A stretch of DNA of 64,000 bases from Christensenellaceae bacterium Phil7 (GCA_001940845.1 MSGV01000001.1:25975-89974); one strand, 5' to 3'; shown: positions 1-58,735, numbered from the stretch's first letter. Notes: generated by a model not told the origin, from the letters alone. Made by a program: numbers and translations.

Positions 1-3000
1 CAGAATCGCGTTTTAGGATCATATGGGTCAACAAATCATCTGAGCCGCAAAAAATAATTTTGATTTTGCTCGGTTTATTTTGCTCAGGGCTTGACAACAG
101 ATTGCAAATTTCGACAAATTCGCACCAAGATGGAGCATTCCAATGTTCAACAACCTGCTGGAATTCATCAAGTAGTAACCACAGTTCAAGATCAGCAGCC
201 TCTAATAACTCATTAAGCTCATAGTATTTTGACTCAATGCTTGTAACATCATCCTGTAAAACCCGCAACATATCGCGAATTAAGTTGCTGGATAATTTAA
301 CTTTCCCAGGCGAGCCAAGGCGACTTCTTTTGGTTAATCCGTAAATAAGAGTGTCAACCAGAAGGTATTGCGACATTCGATAAGGATCATCATATGGAAC
401 CACCTTTGTTCTATCTATAATTTGTTGCTTGTAATCAGAGTCTTTCCCCAGACCATTTTCGCCACCGATAAGAACAGATAGGACATTTCCTTTGTCAATA
501 GCATGCTTGTTTCTAATCCAGTTCATCAAAGATGTTTTTCCGATTCTGGATGGGCCATAGATAAGCGTGACTCCAGAAGGAATGCTTTTTGCTATCAGTT
601 CTTTTTTGTCATCCCGGCCAAACAGCAATTGATCCTCGGTCACGGCAGAGGAAACACTTTGTCTAGCAGCTGTCAATGCCTCTGCCGGAACATTAGGAGT
701 ATGCGGAGATTTGACATAGATTACTCCTTGTGTAGAACATACCACTTCTTTCGTACCGTTTTGTGCGGCATATGTTACCATTAGCTTCACAGAGATTTTC
801 TTTTCAGAAGATACTATGAGCCGGGCAACGCCTCCCGTGATAGAGCCACTTTGCAGTTCTACTATATGTTGAATGTTGATGAATACACTGGGCTGATTTT
901 CTTGCTGCAATACAACTGCCAATCCTTCACTTGAGAAAGAAACAGATCTATTTCCGACATTTTTTATCTGGAAATAAACGCAATTGTCAGTTGTTTCTAG
1001 ATTTTCAATTTCAATGGACAGCTGAATGCCGTTAGCGAGCCACTCAATCTCGTCTTTAAGCGCACGCATTACATTCATAGAATACGGAGAAATCAGTCCA
1101 GAGAACATATTCAACAGAGAAGTATATCCCTTGTGTTTTTCATCGTTGCTAATATCTGGAGACGCAAGCTCAGCACACTCATCCAATATCCGCTTTCTTA
1201 GATCAGCAAAATCTATGAGTGCGTTTGCTTCTCTTAGAAACTCTTCAATAATTGCGCTGTACTTTACCCAAAGAGCTAACGATAAGCCACTGTTAATTAT
1301 GGCAGAAAATTTTGACTTAAGGTTCTCTGTCTGGGCACTGTATTTTTTGCTAGAGAAAATTGAGCGATTGATATACAACTCAGCAATGATTGACAATCGG
1401 TTTTCAATCGTCAGTCCAACCTCAGGGCGCAGTAATACAAGCCCTATCTCTAGGGCTAAGTCATTGACCGGAGGAATGTTTACCTCTACATGTGTGTTTC
1501 GAGTGTTTACTCTCCACAGCAAGGTTTCCAGACCTAGTTTAGATTGCATCCATGGGTCATCTGCCTCAAGATAACCTGCATACGAATCATTTGCTGCTTG
1601 AACGGTAGTGGGAATGTTATCTTCACCAAAAACTGATTTGAGTAATCTATAAGGGAATACAAACTTTACATTCTTAACCGTATTTTCTCGACTGCCATCC
1701 GAATGTACCTTGTTGGGTTTAAATTTCTGGACAGTCCCGTTTGCAAACTCAACGATTCGATTTGCTTCATCGGTCCAATCATGTGGCACCAAAGAACAAA
1801 AGTCATTATCATCGATAATACTCTTTGCTAGTTCTGAGTTTTTCTTGATACAAGCGAGGAGTGCACACAAATGGATATAAATACCCTTGGATTTACCCTT
1901 ACATACAAGGTAATCTGAGATGTATTTGTATTTTTCACATATCAAGTTGTCCCTTTGTGTGATCACCAGCGATCTGAAGCGGTCACTAATTAAGAAATCA
2001 AACTGTCTAGAGCATAACAAAGGAATTAACCAGCGATGATGCTTGCTGATTTCGGCAACATCCATAGCTACAATACTGTTCAAAATCTGTGAGCCTTTAT
2101 CCATAAAGGCTAATTGTTCAAAAATAGAGACAGCAGAGGAATCAAACCTATCCTTAAGTGCCACCAACGCATCATGCGCATAATCAGAAATCGATTCAGC
2201 CAGAGGCAATGCTACAGAAAAATCACCAACACGAATGCCGTTCCACAAATGACTGTATAGGCTAGTATTGAAATACCTAAAGTCAAGCAACATGATCAGC
2301 TTACGACAAATCAACTTGTAGTGTGCAGGCATTTCACACAATATCTGTGCATAGCTGTCATACAAATCTTCTGCATGACCCACCATCACAGCAAACAAAA
2401 AGTGGTTTTTGAATTTTTGCTCAAGCCCATCCAGCTCTATAAATTGATTAACTGCTTCTACAAACGGTACATATGCATTTGCATAGACGTCATCATAATG
2501 ACCGTTCTTTTCCATCAGAGCCAGAATGTCAGCATCATTTATGCAGTTGGGACTTCTAAGAACAAGCAACAAATACAATTTCAGGTAACGCCACTTTTTA
2601 TAAAAGAAGGGGAAAGTCGAATTCTGTATAGATTGAGCTTTGTATGCGCACCATAGCAGTCGCAGGTATACCCTGTAGCTTTGAAGAACTGTAAAATCAG
2701 AGAACTTCTTATCTAATGACTCGTATATATCCTGATCATATAGTACCTCAAAAATATATGAATACACCAGCATTTTGTGCGACTCGTTGCTACACGCCTT
2801 ATCAAAAGTGAATAGACCTGTTTTTTCAGGATAGGTAGATAAAATTTCTATACAATCACGCTTAAAACGCCGTACATAGTATTCATCGTAAAAAAGGCCC
2901 TCTTTGTCCAGTAATAAAACATCATCATCACTGTAAACGATACGCAAGATACTCAGTAAGGCATACTCATTTTCTGTCATACTAGGCCAATCTTCCGAGA

Positions 3001-6000
3001 ACAATACTTCTGTGGTTTCTTGAATATTGCAATTGTTTAAATAATTGTGACAGATTACAGAAAAAAGTGCTTGTTTGCTGGTTGCAGATTGGGCCAGTGC
3101 TTTCAGCTCAAATATACTTAGCTCTGTTCCCAAAAGTGATAGAATCTCATGGAACGCCGAATGACCGCTTGTTCCATATGTATTCTGACAGTATCGTTTG
3201 AAGTCCTTAATATTTTCTTCGTAAGTATTTAGCCACACATTATCAGTAATAATGTGCTGATACAGAATCTTGTTGCTCAACGCATCGACGAGTCGTTGGC
3301 ACAGGGATACACTTTGACTATCTTTTATAACTTCAAACGCGTATATCAAAAAGTTCGGAGGATACAATGCGGTGTTGGTGCTATTCAATATATAATCCAA
3401 TGCACCCTGAGAATAATTGCTATCTTGGTAGTTCAATACTTTACGCAAGACAGTTTCACATACACATATATTACAGGCATTCCGTTCAAGACCATTTTTG
3501 ACCAAATGGTTCAAGAAAGAAACCCAGGCATCTTCGCTTGATGCATTAGCCATAATATTGTCATAATAGAAACTAAAAACATGGCCTTCCCTATGATCTT
3601 TATAATTTGGAATGGTAATCCTGCTAGCCCAATTCAGAAAATCAATTAAAACATCTGTTTTCAGCGTTTGAAATGCATATGCAATAACATGATGTTGACT
3701 CTTTAGTTTGTTGAAATCAACATATTTACCGAGTTGGCTGCGGATTTGACTATACAGTCGCACAAACCCCTTGTCCACTTTTGATCCAAAAATCGTGAAC
3801 AAGTATGCTGCGTGCATGTATTTTTTCTCATATACGTATAACGCTAGTAGCGAGTTGATTATTAAAGGCTGAGTCGGCTTAAATTCCGCTAGCAACATTT
3901 TGACTGCTTCATTACGCATTGATGCATCGCCGATACACGCAAAAGCTTTGGGAGAAAGCCCGTTCTCCCTGAAGTTTTCGCCAATTGCTTGTACCAACAA
4001 TGTGTTTCTTTCCGAAGCATCTAAACTTCGAGACGCCCATAAGAAAGAGATCGCATCGGTGTATCTGTGCAAATGAATAAGCGACTCAATATACTGACCT
4101 GCGTGCTTTCTTCTTGTTTCTTCCAGTTCAAACCGCGAATCTAAAGAATAATACTCTGCAAACGCAGAATATGCACCTTTGCGGTAGAGTTCCTCGAAAA
4201 CAGCATCGATGTTTTCAATAGAGAGATCAGTCGGTGGGTAGGTTCGAACGAACCATTCAGCGTAGTGTGTTTGTAACTTAAGATAATTCGGGAAATCCAT
4301 ACGGAATACTGCGAATAAATCCACAAACTGACTTTCAGTTTCTGGTGCAATGCAATTCAAATGCTGAGTTTTTCGGGTGTAAAAGCTATTCGAAAATTTA
4401 TTCCAACCGTCCAGCATTCCTGTTGAGTCTGTAGTTGCGTTGTTGGGGCTCATATTAGCATGAACGACGAAGATAATATACGATGCCAATACATACATAT
4501 TGTTACTGTCCACCGCACAACTACACACAGTTTCAAACGAATTAATCAACATATTCTGCTTATCAATTCGAGATAAACCCTTTCCAGACGAGTATCTAAG
4601 AACCTCATCAATTGAGGAATAATCATCATGTAATATTACCCAAGACAGAAGATTCAAATAGTTCTCATTAAGGATGTTGTCGCGATAAGCGTCTCTCCAC
4701 AGCAGCGCTAGGCATCGCTGTAATAATTGCCGATTCACGCCATCGTCAATCAATTGCCTAAATTTACGCTCGGTCCACTCGTCAAGGTTGAAATACAGAT
4801 CGACTAAACGCCATTCAGAAGAAGTTCTTTCTAAATCCCAAAGAGATATGATACTTTGCAATGCATGCATGTTATCGTATTCAACAAATACCGAAACAAT
4901 ATTTGTGCGAATATTTTGGGCAAGCTGTGAACAGCTGAGAATGTTATTGTGAATAATTCTCAGCACAGCCTCAAATGAACACATGCGGAGATCATCAGAC
5001 ATTCTGGGACCCGAGGTAGAATGCCTCATATCTTTCACGATTTGGCAATATTCACTAACAATTTTTTGTATTGATGCTTTGGAGTTTTGAACAAATGCTC
5101 GGATGATGTAAAAATGCGGAATAAGTACATTTTCACAGGCAACAAATCTTGCTGTAATACCAACATAGTTATTATTGAGTGTTTTTTCTGCACCAATCGC
5201 ATTAAGCAGTTTAACAACAAGAGCACTATGCTCAGGGTAATCGAAGTGTGCGATGGCGGTGTCTCCGCACTGAGCAACAATTTCCTCAGAGTAAACACCA
5301 TGGTTCTTCCATTTTTTGATAAACATTGCAGTTGTCGGGTTGCTGACTAACTCTTGCTGGAAAGCATTCAAGCTAATGCTTTCCGAGCTTTCGGGGTAAA
5401 TCAGTCTGTGTGCGCATGTTAATGCTTTTTCCAAATATTCGAGCGGCAATTCTTGCGGCTGCATATTTTTCAAAATATCAGATGCTAAAAAATCTACATA
5501 CCTGCCATTCTCGAAGATCTCATCAAGCACAGCGAAAGACATGTCAGGAATGATAACCTTTGTGGCGTTAATGGTAGAAATATCGGTCGTTTCGATGTCA
5601 ATAGGTGTCTCTCCTTTAAGAACAATTATACCGGGATACAGTTTTCCCTGAATGGCAATATTCTTTTTAAGTTCATATTCAGAGAGATACTTTCCCAAGA
5701 ACAATTCAACAGAGTCCGCATAATTTCTGAAATTAGGGAGTCCGCATTTTTTTGCAATGTTAGGAAAATATGCTGATAACACATAGTCATTCTTGCTAAG
5801 TTCATTACGCAAGAATACATCAATAGCTTCCACTGCCTGTTCAAAAGTTATTGTAGAATCTTGACTAGATTGTTCTGCCGATACTTTATGCCCCAACACC
5901 ACTTGTTCAGGAAGAATTCTTATATAAGCACACTGCTTTTGGTGCAATGTGCGAATGATTCTAATTGGTATTGAGTAATCTATCGCAGGATGATACAATC

Positions 6001-6559
6001 CAGTCTTTGTGTTCCTTGCTGTGCCAGAAACGGCATAGCACACAAGATAAAGGAAGTCTTTTGTATTGAACTTGGTGTTTTCGGGGATAGTACGAATGGT
6101 TGCAGGATTAAAGATGACAGAAAGCCCTTCGGTTGTAGGCTCACTTTTTCCGTACCATTGATTAATAAATGCTTTTTTAAAGGTGCAATAATTAATCACG
6201 CCTATTTTATAGGCAATTTCGTTTGATTCAATTCCTGCCTCAACAGACAGCATATCCCAACTCAACACTTCTTCTTCAATAGTAAAGTTAGACGGAGTCG
6301 AAGATTGCCCTATGGTAGGGTTTGCACTAGTTGAAAAAACTATAGTCTCCTTTCCGTAATTTCCATCAATCCGGAATTCAGGGAAGTTGGATTCTATCCA
6401 GCGCTTAGGTCCTTGATCGCCATATATGCTCCTGGTAATACCAAGTTGTTCTCCCTGTCGTTCAAGCAACGGAGTTAAGTTATTCATTCTTACGAAACCA
6501 TTTGAACTAATTTCGGAAGAGATGATTTCAACAATCTTTTTTCTTTGATGATCCGTCAT
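1..6559 (-). CDS. Giant multidomain protein, 3'-partial (>2,186 aa in window): wHTH-like N-terminus, ~1,700-aa all-alpha region, Ig-like beta domain, P-loop (AAA/STAND-like) NTPase
   Basis: Not in the ORF track because its stop codon lies left of nt 1. I hand-translated the minus strand from ATG 6559-6557 (SD GGAGG upstream) and checked every codon down to nt 2; none is TAA, TAG or TGA. N-terminus is MTDHQRKKIVEIISSEISSNGF. Near the left edge: LLFGRDDKKELIAKSIPSGVTLIYGPSRIGKTSLMNW (Walker A, nt 530-556), LELWLLLDEFQQ (Walker B, nt 158-178) and KIKIIFCGSDDLL. A beta-rich segment (ENLETTDNCVYFQIKNVGNRSVSF...KISVKLMVTYAA) lies at nt ~720-1020. Confidence 0.85.
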   Translation of the reverse strand, partial: MTDHQRKKIVEIISSEISSNGFVRMNNLTPLLERQGEQLGITRSIYGDQGPKRWIESNFPEFRIDGNYGKETIVFSTSANPTIGQSSTPSNFTIEEEVLSWDMLSVEAGIESNEIAYKIGVINYCTFKKAFINQWYGKSEPTTEGLSVIFNPATIRTIPENTKFNTKDFLYLVCYAVSGTARNTKTGLYHPAIDYSIPIRIIRTLHQKQCAYIRILPEQVVLGHKVSAEQSSQDSTITFEQAVEAIDVFLRNELSKNDYVLSAYFPNIAKKCGLPNFRNYADSVELFLGKYLSEYELKKNIAIQGKLYPGIIVLKGETPIDIETTDISTINATKVIIPDMSFAVLDEIFENGRYVDFLASDILKNMQPQELPLEYLEKALTCAHRLIYPESSESISLNAFQQELVSNPTTAMFIKKWKNHGVYSEEIVAQCGDTAIAHFDYPEHSALVVKLLNAIGAEKTLNNNYVGITARFVACENVLIPHFYIIRAFVQNSKASIQKIVSEYCQIVKDMRHSTSGPRMSDDLRMCSFEAVLRIIHNNILSCSQLAQNIRTNIVSVFVEYDNMHALQSIISLWDLERTSSEWRLVDLYFNLDEWTERKFRQLIDDGVNRQLLQRCLALLWRDAYRDNILNENYLNLLSWVILHDDYSSIDEVLRYSSGKGLSRIDKQNMLINSFETVCSCAVDSNNMYVLASYIIFVVHANMSPNNATTDSTGMLDGWNKFSNSFYTRKTQHLNCIAPETESQFVDLFAVFRMDFPNYLKLQTHYAEWFVRTYPPTDLSIENIDAVFEELYRKGAYSAFAEYYSLDSRFELEETRRKHAGQYIESLIHLHRYTDAISFLWASRSLDASERNTLLVQAIGENFRENGLSPKAFACIGDASMRNEAVKMLLAEFKPTQPLIINSLLALYVYEKKYMHAAYLFTIFGSKVDKGFVRLYSQIRSQLGKYVDFNKLKSQHHVIAYAFQTLKTDVLIDFLNWASRITIPNYKDHREGHVFSFYYDNIMANASSEDAWVSFLNHLVKNGLERNACNICVCETVLRKVLNYQDSNYSQGALDYILNSTNTALYPPNFLIYAFEVIKDSQSVSLCQRLVDALSNKILYQHIITDNVWLNTYEENIKDFKRYCQNTYGTSGHSAFHEILSLLGTELSIFELKALAQSATSKQALFSVICHNYLNNCNIQETTEVLFSEDWPSMTENEYALLSILRIVYSDDDVLLLDKEGLFYDEYYVRRFKRDCIEILSTYPEKTGLFTFDKACSNESHKMLVYSYIFEVLYDQDIYESLDKKFSDFTVLQSYRVYLRLLWCAYKAQSIQNSTFPFFYKKWRYLKLYLLLVLRSPNCINDADILALMEKNGHYDDVYANAYVPFVEAVNQFIELDGLEQKFKNHFLFAVMVGHAEDLYDSYAQILCEMPAHYKLICRKLIMLLDFRYFNTSLYSHLWNGIRVGDFSVALPLAESISDYAHDALVALKDRFDSSAVSIFEQLAFMDKGSQILNSIVAMDVAEISKHHRWLIPLLCSRQFDFLISDRFRSLVITQRDNLICEKYKYISDYLVCKGKSKGIYIHLCALLACIKKNSELAKSIIDDNDFCSLVPHDWTDEANRIVEFANGTVQKFKPNKVHSDGSRENTVKNVKFVFPYRLLKSVFGEDNIPTTVQAANDSYAGYLEADDPWMQSKLGLETLLWRVNTRNTHVEVNIPPVNDLALEIGLVLLRPEVGLTIENRLSIIAELYINRSIFSSKKYSAQTENLKSKFSAIINSGLSLALWVKYSAIIEEFLREANALIDFADLRKRILDECAELASPDISNDEKHKGYTSLLNMFSGLISPYSMNVMRALKDEIEWLANGIQLSIEIENLETTDNCVYFQIKNVGNRSVSFSSEGLAVVLQQENQPSVFINIQHIVELQSGSITGGVARLIVSSEKKISVKLMVTYAAQNGTKEVVCSTQGVIYVKSPHTPNVPAEALTAARQSVSSAVTEDQLLFGRDDKKELIAKSIPSGVTLIYGPSRIGKTSLMNWIRNKHAIDKGNVLSVLIGGENGLGKDSDYKQQIIDRTKVVPYDDPYRMSQYLLVDTLIYGLTKRSRLGSPGKVKLSSNLIRDMLRVLQDDVTSIESKYYELNELLEAADLELWLLLDEFQQVVEHWNAPSWCEFVEICNLLSSPEQNKPSKIKIIFCGSDDLLTHMILKRDS

Positions 6560-6620
6560 CTGGCTATAACCTCCTATGACATCAGCAGAATAGTACACTA
6601 ACCGGAAATTACAAATAACA

Positions 6621-7250
6621 TTACAGCAGAGCTTCGTTTAAGTATTCCCTTGCCCGCCGATCCAGTTCTTCAGCAGTGAATGCACAGGGCTGTAGACGCT
6701 CTGCCCAAGCACGGCCGGGATGCAGGCAGTCCCACAAAGGCATCTTTCCACTATGCCGACCTTTTCCAGGGTCGTGGTTTCCAAAACCATCAAGCACCCT
6801 GTTCCAGACGGGCTTGAACCGTTCAATGAGCAGCGATTCCGTGAGCGGAATCCAGATGTCATCTACCGACAAGAAACGGCAGCGGAAATCTGCCAGATCG
6901 AGGTTGGTTGCTGCATCAACGGATTTTGCGTGGTCGGTCAATCTCTTGAAGAGAGCGGTGCCGGGGTCGACATCATCACCCTGTCCGCCCTTTCTGGCTC
7001 CATCGGGTACAGCCTTGCCCACATAAATGGGGCAAAGAAACTGGTCATTTCGATTCACATCTGCAAGGGCTTCATAGGCCGGAAAGTCCCCTACATAATA
7101 CAACGCATAGACTCCGGCACCGATGAACGGCTCCGGCGGCAAAGGATAAATTTCAGACTCCAGAAGTGCGTTTGCAACGCTGGCACCCAGATGCCGCTTG
7201 TCCAGAGGGTTAAATGGTTCAAATACAGGATAATCTGCTTTCTTAGCCAT
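6621..7250 (-). CDS. Type II restriction endonuclease, GIY-YIG class, Eco29kI-like
   Basis: 209-aa ORF with GIY-YIG-like motifs GVYALYYVG and PIYVGKA. FNPLD, DIWIPL, WNRVLDGFGNHDPG and LHPGRAWA match my recollection of the Eco29kI family. Overlaps the upstream methylase gene by 8 nt. Confidence 0.7.
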   Translation of the reverse strand: MAKKADYPVFEPFNPLDKRHLGASVANALLESEIYPLPPEPFIGAGVYALYYVGDFPAYEALADVNRNDQFLCPIYVGKAVPDGARKGGQGDDVDPGTALFKRLTDHAKSVDAATNLDLADFRCRFLSVDDIWIPLTESLLIERFKPVWNRVLDGFGNHDPGKGRHSGKMPLWDCLHPGRAWAERLQPCAFTAEELDRRAREYLNEALL

Positions 7251-8421
7251 TGCCCACCATTCCTTTCATTTGTGTGATTACAGAGTCACCGACCGCCTTT
7301 GCCAGCTTAACAGGTACGGCATTGCCGATCTGGCGCATACTTTCTGTCCAAGATGCACTGAAGATATAATCATCGGGGAAAGTTTGGATTCTTGCACTTT
7401 CACGCACAGTATAATACCGAACGCTGCCATCATCCAGAACGACCATGTTCTCGCCACCGGGAACGCCGTGTGCACCAGCCTTAATGGTCTTGGATGGTTC
7501 GTCCAGCTTGCTGCCGGAGTGACCAGCATAAATCCTTGCCCCATCTCTAAAATCGTGGTTGTTATAGATCCTGGATTGACATAAGTCCGTGGGGTCTGGC
7601 AAATCTCCAATGGCATCTCTCACAGTCTGCCATCTGAGAAGCGGAGTATCCGTGTCCTCTACAGCACGGCGGATAGTGCGGAGTTGGGCAGCAGACAACG
7701 GCACTTCGGATGGTCTCTTCATGTCATGTTCTTCCCAATACTCGCCAGTTACCCATTTGGAATAGAGCAATGTCTCCTGGGAATGTGTGGCTGTTGGGAA
7801 TGTCCAGCTTGCGTTATAATCGCTTCTGAACCCTACGATGATAACACGATGACGAGACTGCGGAACTCCGTAGTCGGCAGCATTTAGTAAGCGGAACACC
7901 ACATTATAGGAAAGCCCCTCATCACGCCCGGAAGTATGGTGCCGCTCCAACAGTGCCAGGTGTTCCTCCCAGGTCATATTATCCTTTTTTATAACTTCCG
8001 GGTGCTGGAGTTGCAAAAGGATATAGTTGAAATAGGAACTGAAGGACTTTCTGAGGAGCCCTTTTACATTTTCAAAAATGAATGCCCGGGGCTGTGTTTC
8101 ACGGACGGCTCGTACCGCTTCGGGGAACATATCCCGCTTGTCATTATAAGCCTGGTGTTTACCGCCCAAAGAAAAGGGCTGACACGGAGGTCCTCCGGCA
8201 ACAAGCTGGATTTTTCCAGTATAGCCGTCATAGCTCACCGTGCGGACATCCGATTGGAATACCGTCCAGTCATTCACACCCGGATAACCGTTTGCAATGT
8301 TCCTTCTGATATTTTCGCAGGAGTCTTTGTCCCACTCAAAAAGAGCCTCGTGTTCAAAGCCTGCCTGTTGCAGTCCGAGTGCAAGACCACCCGTTCCGCT
8401 GAATAATTCTATCGATTTCAT
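7243..8421 (-). CDS. DNA (cytosine-5)-methyltransferase, the R-M partner
   Basis: C5-MTase motifs FSGTGG (I), GGPPCQPFS (IV), ENVKG (VI), QSRHRVIIVGF (VIII) and GNAVPV (X). ATG 8421 (MKSIELF, SD GAGGT) is preferred over the track's GTG at 8433. Confidence 0.92.
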   Translation of the reverse strand: MKSIELFSGTGGLALGLQQAGFEHEALFEWDKDSCENIRRNIANGYPGVNDWTVFQSDVRTVSYDGYTGKIQLVAGGPPCQPFSLGGKHQAYNDKRDMFPEAVRAVRETQPRAFIFENVKGLLRKSFSSYFNYILLQLQHPEVIKKDNMTWEEHLALLERHHTSGRDEGLSYNVVFRLLNAADYGVPQSRHRVIIVGFRSDYNASWTFPTATHSQETLLYSKWVTGEYWEEHDMKRPSEVPLSAAQLRTIRRAVEDTDTPLLRWQTVRDAIGDLPDPTDLCQSRIYNNHDFRDGARIYAGHSGSKLDEPSKTIKAGAHGVPGGENMVVLDDGSVRYYTVRESARIQTFPDDYIFSASWTESMRQIGNAVPVKLAKAVGDSVITQMKGMVGNG

Positions 8422-8429
8422 GTTGTACC

Positions 8430-8660
8430 TCACTTGCTATCAGAACAACTGGTCTTTTCCCCAGGCATTAATTCCATAATGTCGGTTATATCGCAGCTCA
8501 ATGCCGTACAAATCTTAAGTAACACATCGGTTGTGATATTATCTCCCTTGCCGAGTTTTGCAATCGACGCGGAACTTACACCGGCAGCAGCTTTTAATGC
8601 CTGCTTGTTCATATTTCGGTCTATCAGCAACTTCCACAGTTTGTTGTAACTGATATACAT
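8430..8660 (-). CDS. XRE/Cro-type HTH protein, candidate R-M controller (C) protein
   Basis: 76 aa with HTH segment NKQALKAAAGVSSASIAKLGKG. Its stop is 8 nt before the methylase ATG, the typical position for a C protein. Confidence 0.7.
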   Translation of the reverse strand: MYISYNKLWKLLIDRNMNKQALKAAAGVSSASIAKLGKGDNITTDVLLKICTALSCDITDIMELMPGEKTSCSDSK

Positions 8661-8687
8661 CTCATTTCCTCCTAAAGTCTTTGCTTA

Positions 8688-10493
8688 TTAATATACATCG
8701 TTAAGAAATCCGTATCTGCCTTCAAAGCGACCTTTGGTAAAGGTAATGACGGTCGCCCCGGAAGTAGTATAATCTAAATTGGGGATGTGATCGAGGTTTT
8801 CAACCACAATCATCTGCCCCTCGACCTGGTTATTCATGAAATACTTAAACAGAGCCGTTCTCATGCTTTCCGGCGCAGCATCATCTACGCCTTGGTCAAG
8901 ACCCAAGAGCGGAGTATCAATGATAAGCAGGCCAGGTTTGTACTTCGCATCCTTCGCCAGATACCGTCTGAACATGAGCGCCACAACCGTATTAAGAAAC
9001 GCACGGTATCCCTTTCCGTGGTTGGTAGATTTCTTTCCACCATTCACTTCGATATCAAAGTCGGTTAAATTGAATCGCGCAGAGGTCAGATTCTCGTAGT
9101 TGCACTCTTCGAGGATGCTCTTGGCATAACTGTCCATAGAAGCAAGAAAAGCATCATCAAAATACTCTTTGGGATGATACTTGAGCGTGTTATCGCCTTC
9201 CTCCGGGAGTTCTCTCAGATCCGTTGTCCAGCTATCAGAGAACGAGTCAATAACATCCATCTCGTGTTTTAGACGGATATACGCACGATAGTTTTTCAGC
9301 GTGTCCTGCAGGGCATCCGCTTTGGGACGAAGCTGTTCACTGATAAGCGTTTCTATGTCCGTCCGCTTGGCGCAAAGTGCTGTCAACTCTGCTTCAATGT
9401 CAGCTTGTTCTTTTTGCACATCCGTCTCTGTTTCGCTCAAGCCATTCAACTGTGCAATAATTCTGGTGAGTTCAGCACGGGAGGCTTCAATATAGGACTT
9501 TCGGTCATGCACAGGCATTTTACCATCGCAGAAAGGACATTTTGCACTGTGAGGGACACTCTGATATTCAACTTCTCCTTCAACGATAAATGTGAGCCGT
9601 CTGATATCCCCGGTGTACTGACTTTTCAGTGCCTTATAGCGTGACAGCAGCACAGCACACTCTGCGGCTTTTTCTTCAACGGCCATGATCTGACCGAGGA
9701 GTTCTTTACTGTCGTTCACAGCTTGCGTGATTGCTGCATCTGTCTCCTCGATATCAGCAATGATGCGCGCAATTTCACCCTCAACATCTACATCTGAGAA
9801 TACAGCTATCTGCTCGGCAAGCACTTTCTTGCGGTCAGCAATTCCGCTGAGCTGCTTATTAACATACTCTTCGACTGCTTTACGGCGCGCAATGCGAATC
9901 TCCTTCTTGGTTTGGGCATCCGTCTCGGCGAAGTCACGACCACTGATCAAATACAGTAAGGCAGATAAAAATGAGGTTTTCTCTGTGTACTGCTCCGGCA
10001 CGATGATGGATTCGGATTTACCAATATCATTCTCGTTAATATAGATCAGGTTCAAAAGGGTGCGCCAAGTCAGGTGCTTCTTTTCAAAATCACTGTTTTT
10101 GACGATCATCGGCTCACCGTAAATTCCCAGCAGTTTAAGCCAAACGGAATTGATCACTGGATTCTTCTGATTCTTTTTATATCCAATATCGTAAGAGCCA
10201 TTTTCAATATAGGGGATGTCGCTCTCAACCTGAATTTGATTCTTGCCAATGGAACGGTCCAAAGTCACCTCACCATCCGGGGTAACGATCCGCATGGTAA
10301 CACGGGAATAGCCCGTACTTTTGTCAAACGGTTTCTCCGAGCTGCCAAATATAAAATCAATACATTTTACAATACAGGTTTTACCCGTGTCCGAGTAGCC
10401 CTGGATAATGTTCAGCCCCTTACCAAAGGAAACGATAGCGTCACTTTTCCCGCTGCCGTGTGCGGTTATGCTTTGAATGTAAAAACCAGACAT
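8688..10493 (-). CDS. Coiled-coil ABC/SMC-like ATPase (ABC-3C-type ATPase component)
   Basis: Walker A GYSDTGKT near the N-terminus. A long heptad-rich insert carries CPFCDG (zinc-hook-like) near its middle. Walker B-like LLIIDTPLLGLD lies near the C-terminus. ATG 10493 (MSGFYIQ) sits 8 nt after GGAGG, whereas the track's GTG 10502 abuts the SD. Confidence 0.8.
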   Translation of the reverse strand: MSGFYIQSITAHGSGKSDAIVSFGKGLNIIQGYSDTGKTCIVKCIDFIFGSSEKPFDKSTGYSRVTMRIVTPDGEVTLDRSIGKNQIQVESDIPYIENGSYDIGYKKNQKNPVINSVWLKLLGIYGEPMIVKNSDFEKKHLTWRTLLNLIYINENDIGKSESIIVPEQYTEKTSFLSALLYLISGRDFAETDAQTKKEIRIARRKAVEEYVNKQLSGIADRKKVLAEQIAVFSDVDVEGEIARIIADIEETDAAITQAVNDSKELLGQIMAVEEKAAECAVLLSRYKALKSQYTGDIRRLTFIVEGEVEYQSVPHSAKCPFCDGKMPVHDRKSYIEASRAELTRIIAQLNGLSETETDVQKEQADIEAELTALCAKRTDIETLISEQLRPKADALQDTLKNYRAYIRLKHEMDVIDSFSDSWTTDLRELPEEGDNTLKYHPKEYFDDAFLASMDSYAKSILEECNYENLTSARFNLTDFDIEVNGGKKSTNHGKGYRAFLNTVVALMFRRYLAKDAKYKPGLLIIDTPLLGLDQGVDDAAPESMRTALFKYFMNNQVEGQMIVVENLDHIPNLDYTTSGATVITFTKGRFEGRYGFLNDVY

Positions 10494-10498
10494 TCGGG

Positions 10499-10945
10499 TC
10501 ACCTCCTTAATGCCTCTGCGGACTTTCTGCTGATTGCGGTCATAAGTTCCACTTCGGAAGCCTCTGCATATTTTTTATGTGTGGTCTTGACTAACTGCCG
10601 ATAAGTATTGGCATACTCCGTTTTCTGACCATGACAAAATCTATAGCCTGTTTCCGTAATTTTATAACAGAACCCCTCGCTTTGACGAGTCGCTTTCACA
10701 AGCCCATCCAGCACCAAAGTTTTCAACGCTTCCTGGAGAACTGCCCGGCGGGTAGACAGTTCACTGAACCCGTAATCGTTATCTCCGTGGAGATTGGAAT
10801 CTGCAATTCCAAAGTGTCTACCGTAAATTGCAATAAAATCGTAGGCAACAATGCGATCAAGGGTCATATTTTTGCCCTCTGTTACCGACAGTAACAGTAA
10901 AGCCCGCAGGGACACCTCAAATGAACTATTAAACAGTTTCATCAT
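10499..10945 (-). CDS. Small wHTH-like protein (ABC-3C middle-component-like)
   Basis: ~148 aa (MMKLFNSSFEVSLRALLLL...), or 158 aa if the 10975 start is used. It overlaps both neighbours. Size and position between the CTD protein and the ABC ATPase fit the three-component layout. Family assignment is from memory only. Confidence 0.55.
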   Translation of the reverse strand: MMKLFNSSFEVSLRALLLLSVTEGKNMTLDRIVAYDFIAIYGRHFGIADSNLHGDNDYGFSELSTRRAVLQEALKTLVLDGLVKATRQSEGFCYKITETGYRFCHGQKTEYANTYRQLVKTTHKKYAEASEVELMTAISRKSAEALRR

Positions 10946-11936
10946 CGAACACCCACGATTCAATCGTACCGTCATTCACAAGAATGTGACAGACGCCCTT
11001 TTTCTCAAGATTACTGATGAGTCCTCTGACTTTGGACAAATCGGACTTATCCAAGGTCGTATTTGTTATTTTCTCCAAAACCGCGATCAAACGGGCATAA
11101 CCGTGTTCATAGTCCTTCCAGTAAGTTGGCTTAATGCCCTCATAAGCATCGTCTTTTAGGTCTTGGAACAGAGATTCGCCGTTTTCAAACACTTCTCTTG
11201 CGGAACGATGCACATTGTCCGCACTGTAATATGCTTTTCGCTGATCGGCAAAATCAATGCGGTACCGTTTGGGGAGCTTATCCACTTCGCTACTAGAGAT
11301 GGAGTCCTTATTCAACGCATCCGCATAGGCTCGTAAAAGCTGTTCGATATACGGCAACTCATGCGGAGCGATATCTGTTGGCGGCTGCAACTGCTGCGGA
11401 AGTTCAATCGTGATACCGTCAATATGCACCTTCCCATCTTGGATGTATGCCGTAGCAACCGGCACACCGTTTATCTTTTCGCCTGCCTCTGTAACTTGCA
11501 TATCGGGAATTAACTTTACACTCGATACCCCGGCAGCCAAACTATGTAAAATCTGGCTGCAAATTTCGGCACAACGCTCATCTACAGTGTCCTCAGTGGT
11601 TACGATGCCCTTTTCTGCCAAAGAAGCGCAAAGCTGGCTTTGGGCATCAAAAGGCAGAGCGTGTAAGGCATCCACCAATTTAGTCGTTGAGAAATGATTG
11701 CAGATAATAGATGCGTTTCTCTGGCTGATGTTTCGATTCCCGTTATAAACCTTATTCAGCAAGTTCTGGCTCAGAGAAGCTAACGGGTTGTAGGTATCAT
11801 TTTCGCTGGAAGCGATATCCACTTCATCAGAAGGATCTTCCATGACCATGTCGATCAGGGACAGAACATATGCAGGGATTTCTTGACCCTTACCGATATG
11901 GGAATACAGCATTTTTGCAAAATCGCTGAAGTTCAT
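10929..11936 (-). CDS. First gene of the three-gene module; ABC-3C C-terminal-domain-like protein with no recognisable enzymatic effector domain
   Basis: 335 aa with SD AAGGAG 7 nt upstream. The C-terminal half (RYRIDFADQRKAYYSADNVHRSAREVFENG...) resembles my recollection of the ABC-3C CTD. The N-terminal half has no catalytic motif I can recognise. Confidence 0.5.
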   Translation of the reverse strand: MNFSDFAKMLYSHIGKGQEIPAYVLSLIDMVMEDPSDEVDIASSENDTYNPLASLSQNLLNKVYNGNRNISQRNASIICNHFSTTKLVDALHALPFDAQSQLCASLAEKGIVTTEDTVDERCAEICSQILHSLAAGVSSVKLIPDMQVTEAGEKINGVPVATAYIQDGKVHIDGITIELPQQLQPPTDIAPHELPYIEQLLRAYADALNKDSISSSEVDKLPKRYRIDFADQRKAYYSADNVHRSAREVFENGESLFQDLKDDAYEGIKPTYWKDYEHGYARLIAVLEKITNTTLDKSDLSKVRGLISNLEKKGVCHILVNDGTIESWVFDDETV

Positions 11937-11983
11937 AGAACGACTCCTTCCTCAAAAAATTGATTTGTACATTCATGTCCAAT

Positions 11984-12021
11984 GACGTCCTCCCATGTCA
12001 AATGGGTGGGCGTCTTTTTTT
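11984..12021 (+). terminator. Orphan Rho-independent terminator-like hairpin
   Basis: GACGTCCTCCCAT-gtcaa-ATGGGTGGGCGTC forms a 13-position stem with one mismatch and one G-U pair, followed by TTTTTTT. There is no plus-strand gene upstream. Confidence 0.45.
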
Positions 12022-12096
12022 ATACAATATAGGCGGAAACCACGAAACGCAATGGTTTTGCCAAATTGGGTGGGGACAAGTTTCTACTCGAAATTC

Positions 12097-12125
12097 ATTA
12101 TAGCACATATATGTGAACTTTTCTA
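12097..12125 (-). promoter_or_regulatory. Candidate extended -10 promoter for the minus-strand island operon
   Basis: The minus strand reads TGCTATAAT (nt 12105-12097), with a weak -35 TAGAAA 17 nt upstream. Confidence 0.35.
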
Positions 12126-12358
12126 CCACTTTTGCTGATAATGTGTTTGCGTTCACAGAAAATCCATCGCAAAAGCGAATTTAGCGTTTCCAATCCACCA
12201 TCCTCAGCATCACCTGATCACTGATGGCTCAACTGTGGGTGGCGAACAAGTAAATTGCACGGCTGCCTATTGAGCGGGTCAGCCGCAAGCCGAAACGGAG
12301 AATCTCCGTCAGGACTGCGGTTTTTTCACTGCGCCCATTTTTTGCAGCCGACCCGATT

Positions 12359-12388
12359 CCTCCGTTTCGAGAAATTCGAAATCGGAGG
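12359..12388 (+). promoter_or_regulatory. Hairpin sequestering the SD of the sigma-like gene
   Basis: CCTCCGTTTCGA-gaaat-TCGAAATCGGAGG gives about 12 bp with one bulge. Its 3' arm contains the GGAGG that lies 8 nt before ATG 12397. Confidence 0.4.
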
Positions 12389-12396
12389 AATTTTTT

Positions 12397-12786
12397 ATGA
12401 AAGTCAAGTACGAATTTGCAACTGAAACCGTGGAAATTGAGGTCAGCGATGATTGGGGCAATATCCTCATCGACCTTGACCGCCAGGATTACAACATCGA
12501 CCACAAGGAGACCCGGAGGCATTGCTCTCTGGAGGCTCTGGATGTGGACGGCAATCTGCTCCCCTCCGATGAGGATGTGCTGGCAGAGGTCATCAATGGG
12601 ACGGAGGCTGAGCGGCTACACCGTGCCATCGCCCAACTGGAACCGCAACAGCAAGAACTGGTCAAAGCCATCTACTTCGAGGGAGTCCCGGTTGGCGAGT
12701 ATGCCAAGCGGTGTGGTACCTCCCAACCCTCGATCTCCCGGCGCAAAGACCGCATTCTAAAATCTCTGAAAAAAATTCTGGGGTGA
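12397..12786 (+). CDS. Sigma-70 region-4-like DNA-binding regulator
   Basis: The C-terminus LEPQQQELVKAIYFEGVPVGEYAKRCGTSQPSISRRKDRILKSLKKIL has a region 4.2 HTH pattern. Confidence 0.7.
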   Translation: MKVKYEFATETVEIEVSDDWGNILIDLDRQDYNIDHKETRRHCSLEALDVDGNLLPSDEDVLAEVINGTEAERLHRAIAQLEPQQQELVKAIYFEGVPVGEYAKRCGTSQPSISRRKDRILKSLKKILG

Positions 12787-13063: not shown

Positions 13064-13421
13064 GGTCAAACTGCTCCTTGATGTCATCGAGGATTTGCGC
13101 TCCCTGGCTGACAGCATCCAGGCGGTTGCCGATGCCATGTGCCAGAGTGATGCCCCTACCGAGGAGACGGCTCCCATTCCGCAGGCCGCCCTGGAGCCCA
13201 CGCAAACGCCGATCACGCTGGAGGAAGTTCGTTCCGTGCTGGCAGACAAAAGCCATGACGGTAAAACCGAAGCTGTCCGTGCATTGCTCCAGAAGTACGG
13301 CGCACCCAAGCTGTCCGGCATCGACCCCAAACACTATAAGGCCCTACTTGCGGATGCGGAGAAATTAGGGGACCCCAAAAAGTCTCCAAACTTTTTGGGG
13401 AGAGGAGGAGCAGCGGAATGA
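13047..13421 (+). CDS. Hypothetical phage protein
   Basis: 124-aa ORF in the operon. The exact start is uncertain (GTG 13047 or TTG 13056). Confidence 0.5.
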   Translation: MRWLSKVKLLLDVIEDLRSLADSIQAVADAMCQSDAPTEETAPIPQAALEPTQTPITLEEVRSVLADKSHDGKTEAVRALLQKYGAPKLSGIDPKHYKALLADAEKLGDPKKSPNFLGRGGAAE

Positions 13422-14617
13422 ACGAGTTTTCTCGTTTACGGGGAAACGAGCGATATGAAGCTTGCGACGACGAGATGCCACCTACCAAACACGCCATTCT
13501 CTCCGCATCCTCTTCCCACCGCTGGCTGGGGTGTACGCCCTCTGCTCGGCTGGAGCAGGAATTTGAGAATCGGGAAACCGCCGCTGCCGCAGAAGGCACA
13601 GCCGCTCATGCCCTGGCAGAGCATAAACTCCGCAAGGCACTGAAGATGCGCTCCAAAAAGCCCGTCAGTCAGTACGACTGTGACGAGATGGACGGGTATA
13701 CGGATGACTATGTGGCATTCGTTATGGAGCAGTTCGAGCAGGCGGGTCAGAACTGCCATGACCCCAAAATCCTCATCGAGCAGCGGCTGGATTTTTCCTG
13801 CTATGTGCCGGACGGATTTGGGACCGGCGACTGTCTCATCGTTTCGGACAGACTCCTGCACATCATCGACTTTAAGTACGGCACGGGAGTCCTGGTGGAA
13901 GCCGAAGAAAATCCCCAGATGATGCTGTATGCCCTCGGCGCGCTCCGGCTCTTCGATTCTCTGTACGACATCGAAGAGGTGTCTATGTCCATTTTCCAAC
14001 CTCGCCGTGAGAATGTGTCCACCTGGACGATCTCCGTTGCTGACCTGATGGAATGGGTAGAAACCACGCTGAAGCCCAGAGCCGAGCTTGCCTACAAGGG
14101 CGAAGGCGACTACATCCCCGGCGCATGGTGTACCTTCTGCAAGGCGGCGGTGAAATGCCGTGCCAGAGCGGAGGCAAAGCTCCAGCTTGCCAAGTACGAA
14201 TTTGCCATGCCGCCTCTGCTGACCGATGCCGAGATCGAGGACATCCTCTCCCGGCTGGACAATCTCACCAAGTGGTCGAATGAGATCATGGCCTATGCCC
14301 AGGATGCCGCCATCAACCACGGCAAACAGTGGCACGGGTTCAAGCTGGTGGAGAGCCGCACCAATCGGAAGTACGCCGATGAGGAGGCGGTCATCGAAGC
14401 TGCCAGAGCTGCCGGGTACACCGACATTTTCAAGAAGAGCCTGATTCCCATCACAGAGATGGAACGGCTCATGGGCAAGAAAACCTTCAAAGAAGTCCTC
14501 GGTGGCCTTGTTATCAAGCCCCAGGGCAAACCGACCCTTGTTCCCGCATCTGACAAGCGGCCGGCAATAATCATCGCAGATGTAAATCAAGATTTTACTG
14601 AATTTATGGAGGAATAA
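13418..14617 (+). CDS. PD-(D/E)XK-type nuclease, DUF2800-like (Cas4-like with C-terminal Cys cluster)
   Basis: Contains SASSSHRWLGCTPS, EGTAAHALAEH, DCLIVSD...IIDFKYG and CTFCKAAVKC. This family typically pairs with DUF2815 and PolA genes. Confidence 0.75.
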   Translation: MNEFSRLRGNERYEACDDEMPPTKHAILSASSSHRWLGCTPSARLEQEFENRETAAAAEGTAAHALAEHKLRKALKMRSKKPVSQYDCDEMDGYTDDYVAFVMEQFEQAGQNCHDPKILIEQRLDFSCYVPDGFGTGDCLIVSDRLLHIIDFKYGTGVLVEAEENPQMMLYALGALRLFDSLYDIEEVSMSIFQPRRENVSTWTISVADLMEWVETTLKPRAELAYKGEGDYIPGAWCTFCKAAVKCRARAEAKLQLAKYEFAMPPLLTDAEIEDILSRLDNLTKWSNEIMAYAQDAAINHGKQWHGFKLVESRTNRKYADEEAVIEAARAAGYTDIFKKSLIPITEMERLMGKKTFKEVLGGLVIKPQGKPTLVPASDKRPAIIIADVNQDFTEFMEE

Positions 14618-52393: not shown

Positions 52394-52807
52394 ATGAAAC
52401 AGATTTGGAATGGAGTCCAGCTTGCCTTCACCGCACTCGGTGGTTTCCTGGGCTGGTTTTTGGGCGGAGCGGATGGCTTCATGTACGCACTCATCGCCTT
52501 TGTTGTGATCGACTACATCACCGGGGTCATGTGCGCGATTGCTGACCACAACCTCTCCAGCGCGGTGGGATTTAAGGGCATCTGCCGCAAGGTGCTGATC
52601 TTTACCCTGGTGGGGATCGGAAACATCCTGGATGTGTATGTCCTGCAGGACGGTCATGCGTTGCGTATGGCTGTGATCTTCTTCTACCTGTCCAATGAGG
52701 GCGTGAGCCTGCTGGAGAATACCGTCCACCTGGGTCTGCCCGTGCCGGAAAAACTGAAGGATGTCCTGGCACAGCTCCACGGCCGTGGGGAAAGCGAGGA
52801 CGAATGA
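52394..52807 (+). CDS. Holin (TcdE/phage_holin_4-like)
   Basis: GGFLGWFLGGADGFMYALIAFVVIDYITGVMCAI...LSSAVGFKGICRKVLIF. ATG 52394 follows AGGAGG. Confidence 0.88.
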   Translation: MKQIWNGVQLAFTALGGFLGWFLGGADGFMYALIAFVVIDYITGVMCAIADHNLSSAVGFKGICRKVLIFTLVGIGNILDVYVLQDGHALRMAVIFFYLSNEGVSLLENTVHLGLPVPEKLKDVLAQLHGRGESEDE

Positions 52808-52808
52808 T

Positions 52809-53792
52809 ATGAAACTGATCCAGTCCTTCCTCACGAAAAACCCCTGCTACAAAGCGGGGCGCAAGATCGCAGTCAAAGGGCTGATGCTTCACTCCGTGGG
52901 GTGCAATCAGCCCAGCGCAAGGGTGTTCGTTCGCAACTGGAACAGCGAAAGCTACGACCGTGCCTGTGTCCACGGGTTTATTGACGGCAACGATGGGACC
53001 GTCTATCAGACCTTGCCCTGGGATCACCGGGGCTGGCACGGCGGTGGTGCATCCAACAACACCCACATTGGCGTGGAGATGTGCGAACCCGGCTGCATCA
53101 AATACACGGGCGGTGCGACTTTCACTTGCAGTGACAAGCCTGCCGCCCAGGCAGTCGCCAAGCGCACCTACGAGGCGGCGGTGGAACTGTTCGCTATGCT
53201 CTGCAAGCAGTACGACCTTGATCCCCTGGCCGATGGTGTGATTGTCAGCCATCGTGAGGGCTACAAGCGTGGCATCGCCAGCAACCACGGCGACCCGGAG
53301 CATCTGTGGTCGCAGCTTGGCATGGGGTACACGATGGACACCTTCCGCAAAGCAGTCAAAGCGGCGATGGGCGGTACTTCTGTGGAAAAGCCCTCTCAGC
53401 CGGACACCAAACCGACTGCTCCCGTGTCCGGCATCAAGGCTGGCGACTTGGTGCAGATCATCGGCACCAAGTATTACGGCGGCAAGACCATCCCGGCTTG
53501 GGTCAAGGCAAAGAAGTGGTATGTCCTGTCTGTCAGCGGCGACCGTGCCGTGATCCATAAAAGCGAAGATGGCAAAAACGCCATTCAGTCCCCGGTCAAA
53601 GTGTCCGACCTCAAGGCGATCACCAGTCAGCCGACCTACCAGGTGCATACCGTGGTCAAAGGCGACTCCCTTTGGGCTATTGCCCAGAAGCACCTGGGCA
53701 ACGGTGGCCGTTACCCGGAGATCAAGAAACTGAACAGCCTGACCTCGGATGTCATTTACAGTGGCATGAAACTGAAAATCCCCAATAAGTAA
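52809..53792 (+). CDS. Endolysin: N-acetylmuramoyl-L-alanine amidase with C-terminal SH3/LysM-type binding domains
   Basis: GLMLHSVG...HGFID...GWHGGG...THIGVEMCEP, and C-terminal YQVHTVVKGDSLWAIAQKHLG...IYSGMKLKIP (LysM). Confidence 0.88.
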   Translation: MKLIQSFLTKNPCYKAGRKIAVKGLMLHSVGCNQPSARVFVRNWNSESYDRACVHGFIDGNDGTVYQTLPWDHRGWHGGGASNNTHIGVEMCEPGCIKYTGGATFTCSDKPAAQAVAKRTYEAAVELFAMLCKQYDLDPLADGVIVSHREGYKRGIASNHGDPEHLWSQLGMGYTMDTFRKAVKAAMGGTSVEKPSQPDTKPTAPVSGIKAGDLVQIIGTKYYGGKTIPAWVKAKKWYVLSVSGDRAVIHKSEDGKNAIQSPVKVSDLKAITSQPTYQVHTVVKGDSLWAIAQKHLGNGGRYPEIKKLNSLTSDVIYSGMKLKIPNK

Positions 53793-58565: not shown

Positions 58566-58735
58566 CCTAAAATCTTCAGGGCAAGGTGTGATTCCTGACC
58601 GGCAGTAAAGTCTGCGACCCGCATAGCGGCTGAAACGGTTTGATTCCGTTACCGACGGTATAGTCCGGATGATAGAAGATATGACCGGAACAGCCCTGTA
58701 GGTATGATACCTATGGGGCTGCTTCTGAATCCACA
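58566..58735 (+). promoter_or_regulatory. FMN riboswitch (RFN element)
   Basis: AATCTTCAGGGCAAGGTGTGATTCCTGACCGGCAGTAAAGTCTGCGACC...GGTTTGATTCCGTTACCGACGGTATAGTCCGGATGATAGAAGAT matches the RFN consensus core. A hairpin expression platform follows. Confidence 0.9.

Follow-up and report, generated by a model that had tools for sequence, protein, structure and literature searches.

Within a 64,000-nucleotide stretch of DNA from Christensenellaceae bacterium Phil7 (GCA_001940845.1 MSGV01000001.1:25975-89974; hereafter the window, with all coordinates counted from its first letter), we analyzed a three-gene module on the minus strand that belongs, by profile comparison, to the Lamassu family. A first-pass annotation had described it as an ABC three-component (ABC-3C) module. 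All three open reading frames (ORFs) were confirmed at the positions and sizes that it had proposed, and Pfam and PADLOC profile checks bore out the nature of the module, recovering the CTD6 family, the Middle Component 2 family (MC2) and an SMC-like ATPase with a zinc hook. The three genes, in their order of reading, are:

10929..11936, minus strand: lmuA, 335 amino acids (aa); effector component, matching the PADLOC LmuA model PDLC03857 over its full length
10499..10945, minus strand: lmuC, about 148 aa; middle component MC2, basic, isoelectric point (pI) 9.1
8688..10493, minus strand: lmuB, 601 aa; ABC ATPase resembling Rad50/SbcC, 'short' Lamassu type, single zinc hook

The ATG of lmuA (start 11936) has GGAGG upstream of it. 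For lmuC, the longest ORF spans 10975..10499 (158 aa), but Pfam and PADLOC align to it only from residues 11-14 onward, and the genes called in near-identical contigs encode 148 aa. Translation therefore probably starts at the ATG at 10945, so that lmuC and the end of lmuA share 17 nt. The lmuB ORF opens at a GTG at 10502 (604 aa), and AGGAGG is found 8 nt before the ATG at 10493, from which the 601-aa protein is counted.

The module is a short Lamassu system of the CTD6/MC2 clade

Each of the three proteins matched the corresponding Lamassu model of PADLOC, LmuA with E 1.2e-103, LmuB (PDLC03867) with E 3.9e-248 and LmuC with E 3.9e-54 (E 6.6e-46 against Pfam MC2), in each case over the full length. 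As judged from these profile matches, the module is a short (type II) Lamassu / ABC-3C system with the order lmuA-lmuC-lmuB and belongs to the CTD6/MC2 clade; it is labeled 'short' because of the length of LmuB. Since a full-length PADLOC model for this type of LmuA exists already, the locus adds a member to a catalogued type. Public names were sought for the LmuA homologues, which number 195, and none was recorded.

ABC-3C and Lamassu/DdmABC are one family (bioRxiv 10.1101/2025.03.14.643221; bioRxiv 10.1101/2025.06.23.660979; PMC11707656), so that the match of the ATPase to LmuB, which the first-pass annotation would have taken as a refutation, in fact confirms the assignment. Its view that ABC-3C systems were essentially uncharacterized is out of date: phage-defense assays of Lamassu have been published since 2022 (bioRxiv 10.1101/2022.05.11.491447), and structures solved by cryo-electron microscopy in 2025 and a mechanism are available (PMC12663957). 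GajA, JetC and RecN were also considered for the ATPase and rejected, since the LmuB model scores far better than the best GajA (4e-4) and JetC (0.0098) models of PADLOC, which match the P-loop or the coiled coil only, and than RecN of NCBIfam (only E 0.0059).

LmuB has a Walker A motif, GYSDTGKT, at residues 32-39 and a Walker B motif of the short-Lamassu type, LLIIDT. Rad50 and ASRP models of NCBIfam match across its coiled-coil region (residues 215-429). The CPFCDG hook in the coiled-coil insert, seen already in the first pass, was located at residues 319-324 (nt 9539-9522), with the CPFC itself at residues 319-322 (nt 9539-9528). The CxxC zinc hook is a variable trait among short Lamassu systems; it is present in this LmuB as one CPFC and is shared with the Ec-Lipase clade. 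LmuC weakly resembles winged-helix proteins of the ArsR type and F-93.

The known short type II Lamassu / DdmABC systems (V. cholerae Vc-Cap4, Salmonella LmuACB, E. coli Ec-Lipase) likewise have the order lmuA-lmuC-lmuB and are carried by prophages. They share a ~600-aa LmuB that contains Walker A, a Walker B of the hhhhD[QSTE] type and a coiled-coil insert, a small winged-helix-like LmuC, and an LmuA in which an N-terminal output domain is followed by a family-specific C-terminal domain. In contrast to them, the N-terminal domain of LmuA in Phil7 is not a nuclease, lipase, Sir2, protease, Mrr, HNH, FMO or SMEK domain, and an additional helix-turn-helix (HTH) gene follows lmuB. DdmA and DdmB carry CTD7 and MC3 (PMC11707656), whereas the tail and the middle component here are CTD6 and MC2.

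When one genome per species was scanned, a CTD6-type LmuA was encoded at 63 loci, the majority of them in Clostridia of gut and rumen and some of the remainder in Bifidobacterium, Coriobacteriia, Negativicutes, Bacilli and Mollicutes; relatives were also found on 48 IMG/VR viral contigs. The order lmuA-lmuC-lmuB is kept in nearly all of these genome loci and viral contigs that have enough sequence. The co-occurrence that the first-pass annotation expected was thus observed, with the same gene order in more than 50 other genomes and in the viral contigs.

LmuA carries a predicted helical domain at its N-terminus

AlphaFold2, supplied with a 61-sequence alignment, predicted LmuA to consist of a helical N-terminal domain (NTD), a disordered linker and a helical CTD6:

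11517..11936, minus strand: LmuA NTD, residues 1-140; acidic, all-alpha, eight helices
11367..11516, minus strand: LmuA linker, residues 141-190; low confidence, with a small beta-hairpin (YIQDGKVHIDGITIELP)
10929..11366, minus strand: LmuA CTD6, residues 191-335; Pfam PF20282

The C-terminal half of LmuA had been called CTD-like, and Pfam CTD6 covers residues 193-328 with E 1.5e-36. CTD6 is the most conserved part of the protein: in comparison with a relative of 94% identity (L064), which is the reference for the dN/dS values given throughout, dN/dS was 0.09 for CTD6, 0.26 for the NTD and 0.14 for the whole lmuA gene. By analogy with the solved systems, CTD6 is inferred to dock on LmuB/LmuC and to drive oligomerization (PMC12663957; bioRxiv 10.1101/2025.03.14.643221). 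The linker was modeled with a pLDDT of 37-69 and with strands at residues 164-178.

The first-pass annotation had treated the N-terminal ~190 aa as one region with no recognizable enzymatic domain. The second part of that description held, because no enzymatic family was matched on the LmuA N-terminus in Pfam, NCBIfam or PADLOC. The first part needed refinement, in that a folded domain of 140 aa is followed by a low-confidence linker of ~50 aa that contains the beta-hairpin. When the NTD was modeled alone, which the annotation had proposed as a check, AlphaFold2 returned eight helices with a pLDDT of 91.3 and a pTM of 0.83.

None of the recognized Lamassu effector classes that we sought (Cap4, Mrr, PD-(D/E)xK, Sir2, protease, hydrolase, lipase, FMO, HNH and SMEK) was found in the NTD. 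It had no match in Pfam even at E<=10, including the EAD, bDLD, HeLo-type and HTH families. Comparison of its fold with the PDB gave nothing at E<=0.001, and sequence and profile searches of the PDB gave no relatives. Three uncharacterized phage proteins in BFVD share the fold, with TM scores of 0.71-0.78. Just M1, G66 and A75 are invariant in the NTD, and P51, G66 and A75 are near-invariant across the wider family; these conserved positions are structural and not catalytic. The domain has a pI of 4.5 and no transmembrane segment (maximum 19-residue Kyte-Doolittle value 1.33), and the family as a whole has a median pI of 4.8 and a median net charge of -8. Because the conserved residues are structural, the domain is acidic and Pfam and the PDB gave no matches, these data point to a non-enzymatic domain. 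Its confident predicted fold, its dN/dS and its occurrence in hundreds of protein clusters (see below) indicate that the NTD is a real domain under selection and not a remnant.

The NTD occurs on other Lamassu tails and on STAND proteins

A profile of the NTD matched 865 clusters (at 50% identity) at E<=1e-3 and 448 clusters at E<=1e-10. Among the 150 best matches, the domain begins no later than residue 44 in 149, and the proteins that bear it span 111 to about 1500 aa. Partner domains were scanned in 82 longer members. Two different LmuA tail families were found, CTD11 in 19 and CTD6 in 16 of them, and in at least 6 the NTD is joined to an NTPase of the NB-ARC, NACHT or nSTAND6 kind that has TPR or WD40 repeats. 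A single protein of the 82 has the architecture NTD-TIR-VWA, on a contig of just 1.6 kb.

The same NTD thus stands at the N-terminal effector position of STAND proteins of the Avs / bNACHT type (NB-ARC+TPR, NACHT+WD40), from which the Phil7 system differs in that its oligomerizing scaffold would not be a STAND NTPase but the C-terminal domain of LmuA, upon its release by an SMC-like sensor. One NTD-NB-ARC-TPR protein is single-gene cargo on a conjugative element, where the NTD is its only N-terminal module and no neighboring gene bears an NTD. A second copy of the NTD was not found in the window, nor within +/-8 kb in the 63 related loci. NTD-type Lamassu systems in Bacilli and Mollicutes have neither the HTH gene nor a restriction-modification (R-M) neighbor; in L037, L039, L041 and L045, housekeeping or phage genes lie downstream.

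In one protein of 1713 aa (P0265), positions 57-113 of the NTD profile match eight insect allergen repeats (Pfam Ins_allergen_rp) with E about 1e-21, which might be an artefact of composition or a remote resemblance between helical repeats.

LmuA is arranged differently in the nearest LmuB relatives, L036 and L026 (75-78% identity). L036 encodes the same NTD in an ORF of its own, upstream of a CTD-only ORF, while L026 has an unrelated N-domain with no Pfam match fused to CTD6. The second N-domain of the L026 type is a separate ORF in L027 to L035, and in the three loci listed here it had no Pfam or PADLOC match:

L026 1843-3339, L030 6796-7824 and L034 6209-7759: second N-domain, 240-500 aa, with the motifs PHLCGG and CPDCESG

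In all, LmuA is split in 11 loci (L027-L032, L034-L036, L098 and L099; for example, L036 7091-7783 and 7797-8495). In these, the upstream ORF ends with VNQYGDHPVHIDHVENL-KL-stop, VNQYGDHPVHIDHVENLKL standing at the end of the separate N-domain protein, and the CTD6 ORF bears a similar motif 17-35 residues from its start. The paired terminal motif probably tethers the two LmuA halves, and in sequence layout the split LmuA appears to resemble the amyloid-signaling pair Bab/Agp (bioRxiv 10.1101/2024.11.07.622273). By eye, the linker of the Phil7 LmuA also resembles the paired VNQYGD..VH.DHVENL motif of the split variants.

An HTH gene inherited with lmuB precedes a swappable cassette

Three further genes follow lmuB on the minus strand, and the head-to-tail R-M operon that the first-pass annotation had reported is among them:

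8430..8660, minus strand: HTH gene, XRE/HTH_26, 76 aa, VanU-like (Pfam HTH_26, E 6.2e-18)
7243..8421, minus strand: C5 cytosine DNA methyltransferase, 392 aa from its ATG (Pfam DNA_methylase, E 1e-61; PADLOC MTase_II, E 5.9e-139); first gene of the variable cassette
6621..7250, minus strand: Eco29kI-family type II restriction endonuclease, 209 aa (Pfam RE_Eco29kI, E 5.1e-69; PADLOC REase_II, E 3.5e-73)

The pairing of an Eco29kI-type endonuclease with a C5 methyltransferase, as in type II R-M of the Eco29kI family, is present. The HTH gene lies 27 nt after lmuB and the methyltransferase gene 9 nt after the HTH gene, and the methyltransferase and endonuclease genes overlap by 8 nt. All six genes from lmuA to the endonuclease are intact and under purifying selection, with dN/dS of 0.03-0.14 per gene.

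Among 49 loci with a complete lmuB and room downstream, the HTH gene follows lmuB by 13-56 nt in 33-36. Its pairwise identity correlates with that of LmuB (Pearson 0.87, compared with 0.93 for LmuC and 0.90 for CTD6), and in a regression the coefficient of 'same downstream cassette' for HTH identity was -0.015. Its dN/dS is 0.08. When the HTH profile was compared with the PDB, the sole relative was the VanU-like 3tyr (E 1e-27), and none of the solved C proteins matched at E<=0.01; the VanU model of NCBIfam gave 86 bits, under its cut-off of 150. Because its identity tracks LmuB and not the cassette, and because no classical C protein matches it, the HTH gene is best read as a co-inherited fourth gene of this Lamassu clade and not as an R-M controller. 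The first-pass annotation had implicitly counted it with the R-M genes, which does not agree with its inheritance. The controller (C) proteins of R-M systems are alike in being small XRE-type HTH proteins encoded directly upstream of a methyltransferase-endonuclease pair. Unlike them, the HTH gene here is inherited with lmuB, also precedes type I R-M, type IIG R-M and BREX cassettes, and is preceded by 27 nt, which would leave no room for a promoter of its own or a C-box.

The cassettes that follow the HTH gene vary. They include type II systems with a C5 methyltransferase, of the Eco29kI type or other types, type I HsdM, HsdS and HsdR, BREX BrxA and BrxB, a type IIG enzyme and an ICEA-like nuclease; several cassette genes of unknown function had no PADLOC match, except for the type I HsdR in L026. 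A cassette lies directly downstream in 26 of 34 loci that contain the HTH gene and in 1 of 13 that lack it (Fisher p = 2.5e-5, with loci that are not phylogenetically independent). The slot after the HTH gene is swappable for DNA-modification-based cassettes.

One transcript likely spans the six genes, from lmuA to the endonuclease. No promoter-like or terminator-like site was found on the minus strand between them. Sequencing runs were also sought to define the transcript from RNA-seq, and only runs of the DNA type contain the sequence. Two features lie in the region upstream of lmuA:

12097..12125, minus strand: candidate sigma-70-type lmuA promoter, TAGAAA, 17 nt, TATAAT, with an upstream TG
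11984..12021, plus strand: hairpin in the 5' leader of lmuA; its stem-loop precedes T7, with the shape of an intrinsic terminator facing the phage early genes

The candidate promoter, about 160 nt upstream of lmuA, is the best in 6400-12500 (10 of 12 positions); promoter-like sites in this region are as numerous as expected from shuffled sequence, and hence it is only suggestive. Its -35 and -10 boxes are kept in close relatives, whose -35 is TTGAAA. Within its spacer lies a 12-bp perfect palindrome, CACATATATGTG (12101-12112, minus strand), to which the HTH protein might bind as its operator; close relatives retain the palindrome only in part, and no conserved operator was identified at the lmuA promoter when one was sought in relatives. 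The leader hairpin folds with -21.2 kcal/mol (z = -4.5), a value that none of 200 shuffled sequences equals, and is nearly invariant in L064, L066 and L074. There is no gene on the plus strand upstream of it.

Proposed mode of action and alternatives

Three structural studies of 2025 showed that an LmuB dimer and LmuC hold one LmuA and that DNA ends are sensed; once released, LmuA forms an active tetramer (PMC12663957; bioRxiv 10.1101/2025.03.14.643221; bioRxiv 10.1101/2025.06.23.660979). Activity against phages or plasmids, the A1B2C1 stoichiometry, the sensing of DNA ends and the release and tetramerization of LmuA have been established only for distant Lamassu members (PMC12663957; bioRxiv 10.1101/2025.03.14.643221). 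Extrapolated to the Phil7 module, an LmuB dimer together with LmuC would hold one LmuA through its C-terminal domain, the binding of phage DNA ends or replication intermediates would release LmuA, and the freed LmuA would oligomerize through the C-terminal domain. The acidic helical NTD, judging from its position, would be the output module, non-catalytic and working by induced proximity, so that clustered NTDs would bind and disable a host or phage protein, or would nucleate an assembly in the manner of a Death-fold or EAD-like adaptor.

We regard the NTD as a proximity-activated output because it sits N-terminally on two LmuA tail families and on NB-ARC/NACHT STAND NTPases; all of these scaffolds act by oligomerizing, so the NTD would be activated by oligomerization. 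A partner in cis would not be needed, because both the single-gene NTD-NB-ARC-TPR cargo and Lamassu modules without HTH or R-M genes exist. Taken as a whole, the reading of the locus as a prophage-borne short Lamassu with the core of the solved systems and the NTD as a non-catalytic, proximity-activated output has, in our judgment, a little better than an even chance of being right.

Several points weigh against it. Sequence and profile searches of the PDB detected no similarity of LmuA, LmuB or LmuC to the solved Lamassu chains. When the full-length LmuA model was compared with PDB folds, the top match was a solved LmuA (9ny1_C), at a non-significant E of 0.28. The clade is therefore distant from the solved systems, and the mechanism is carried over by family analogy. 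To our knowledge, a non-catalytic effector has no demonstrated precedent within Lamassu. A further point concerns the short-Lamassu 'Clade O' (>100 sequences from >40 species), whose LmuA was reported to have 'seemingly lost the effector domain' (PMC12663957). The Phil7 system is likewise a short Lamassu in which LmuB and LmuC are full-length and LmuA shows no recognizable effector. It differs from Clade O, compared by description only, in that its N-terminal region is present as a folded, conserved and mobile domain. If Clade O should equal the CTD6/MC2 clade, the authors of that study saw no effector there.

A wider reading would make the NTD an undescribed class of non-catalytic immune output shared by Lamassu (CTD6 and CTD11) and NLR-like (NB-ARC/NACHT) sensors; in addition, this Lamassu clade and its HTH gene would make up a fixed head on which restriction or BREX cassettes dock time and again. 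In that case the NTD would kill or arrest the cell purely by induced proximity, and DNA ends generated by restriction could serve as a Lamassu trigger. We consider this wider reading doubtful. It is unlikely, too, that the NTD is an inert homotypic adaptor of the EAD type, recruiting a second NTD protein fused to an enzymatic effector and encoded elsewhere. EADs are small, non-enzymatic, alpha-helical domains that are terminal on core components of NTPase conflict systems, including STAND (PMC7159879, PMC8195603). The NTD, like EADs and bacterial Death-like domains, is small, non-enzymatic, mostly alpha-helical and terminal on a core component, which fits the general EAD description (PMC7159879), and the one NTD-TIR-VWA protein has the architecture expected of an 'adaptor-effector' partner. 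However, the NTD matches no described EAD family, and the defining second copy on a neighboring effector gene is absent from the window, from the surroundings of the 63 loci and from those of the NTD-STAND gene. The context of the NTD-TIR-VWA gene is not visible on so short a contig.

The first-pass annotation had suggested that the effector function may be supplied in trans, in which case the Lamassu core would act via the co-transcribed restriction/BREX cassette, either with cuts feeding LmuB or with LmuA activating the nuclease. The operon-like spacing, the lack of a terminator between the genes and the association of cassettes with the HTH gene are in favor of this idea, as is the sensing of DNA ends by solved Lamassu systems (PMC12663957). 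Yet the cassettes are mechanistically unrelated (R-M of type I, type II and type IIG, as well as BREX, for which no cutting of DNA is known), and a specific protein-protein hand-off is therefore unlikely. The cassette is swappable, NTD-type Lamassu occurs in four loci without R-M genes, and the NTD is also found on a single-gene STAND protein. R-M systems are the commonest neighbors in defense islands anyway, and conservation of the NTD under purifying selection would be unexpected were it dispensable. An effector in trans is thus quite unlikely, and a looser link, with restriction products as DNA-end triggers, may exist. For a membrane-targeting cell-death domain, activated by oligomerization like the helical Bell/HeLo execution domains of NLRs, one can cite the architectural position, which is that of Bell/HeLo on bacterial NLRs, the conserved extreme N-terminus (M1, F3) and the resemblance of the split loci with their paired motif to Bab/Agp (bioRxiv 10.1101/2024.11.07.622273). 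The acidity of the NTD and its lack of a hydrophobic helix argue against such a function, no HeLo-type Pfam family matches, and no HeLo, MLKL or Bab-like structure was among the PDB fold matches, so that we hold it to be very unlikely. Still less probable is an NTD that binds DNA or regulates transcription as a divergent HTH. By eye its motif YNGxRxISxxxAxxI recalls XRE proteins, the fold comparison gave weak matches to EspR, lambda cI and Stl (E about 5), a weak match to the ArgR winged helix was also seen (E 0.21), and the NTD+TPR and NTD+NB-ARC+TPR architectures resemble HTH-STAND regulators. Nonetheless, hhalign put the probability of a match to the XRE HTH encoded in this operon at 0.3%, the domain is acidic family-wide and no HTH Pfam family matched at E<=10; on the hhalign result and the acidity, an XRE-like HTH was rejected. 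We give the lowest credence to a decayed system that lost its effector and kept the N-terminal region as a remnant without function, in view of the confident structure prediction of the NTD, its dN/dS and spread over several architectures, the six intact genes and the full-length LmuC and LmuB.

About 15% of prokaryotic genomes contain a Lamassu system (PMC12663957). Nuclease effectors are the only ones for which its mechanism has been resolved, and a sizeable clade appears to lack an enzymatic warhead, raising the question of how abortive infection acts by non-enzymatic means. What is new here is that the N-terminal region is a conserved, portable domain and not a remnant. Since the NTD is found on NLR-like STAND proteins as well, it offers one compact target that bears on two immune families, and the HTH gene with its cassette slot is a concrete case of a physical, and perhaps functional, coupling of abortive infection with restriction. 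The residual interest of the locus lies in this widely shared NTD and in the HTH-linked cassette slot.

Prophage setting and flanking genes

A phage-like region adjoins the module; it begins near 12.4 kb and reaches as far as two large serine recombinases (54.6-57.4 kb). In contigs whose LmuA is 94% identical, the six genes recur as one string next to the same phage replication module (sigma-like, DUF2800, ssDNA-binding, PolA and D5-primase genes), whereas the other flank differs. Because the phage module is conserved beside the six genes, the other flank differs and the phage-like region adjoins, the Lamassu module is accessory cargo at one end of the prophage.

A DUF2800 RNA motif (Rfam RF02960, 132.6 bits; 12195-12354, plus strand) separates the promoter region of lmuA from the early genes of the phage and precedes a sigma-like ORF (12397-12786) and a DUF2800 / PD-(D/E)xK gene (13418-14617). 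On the other side of the module, a giant ORF of more than 2186 aa (2-6559, minus strand) starts ~60 nt after the endonuclease gene and is cut off by the end of the window. It has 39% GC, compared with 45-50% in the Lamassu and R-M genes, and its sole family match is a P-loop ATPase (AAA_22 / ATPase_2) at residues 1989-2180, with no PADLOC match.

At the prophage end opposite the Lamassu module, an amidase-LysM lysin is encoded at 52761-53792, and the two large serine recombinases (436 and 525 aa) are adjacent at 54557-57429 on the plus strand. An FMN riboswitch (RF00050, 108 bits; 58568-58684, plus strand) lies upstream of the S component of an ECF-type riboflavin transporter (58757-59362, plus strand), and these are probably the first host features to the right of the prophage. 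The right flank, which is lower in GC, also contains genes for a Macro-domain protein (59975-60754, plus strand) and a McrC homologue (63022-63966, minus strand), which may be further defense genes.

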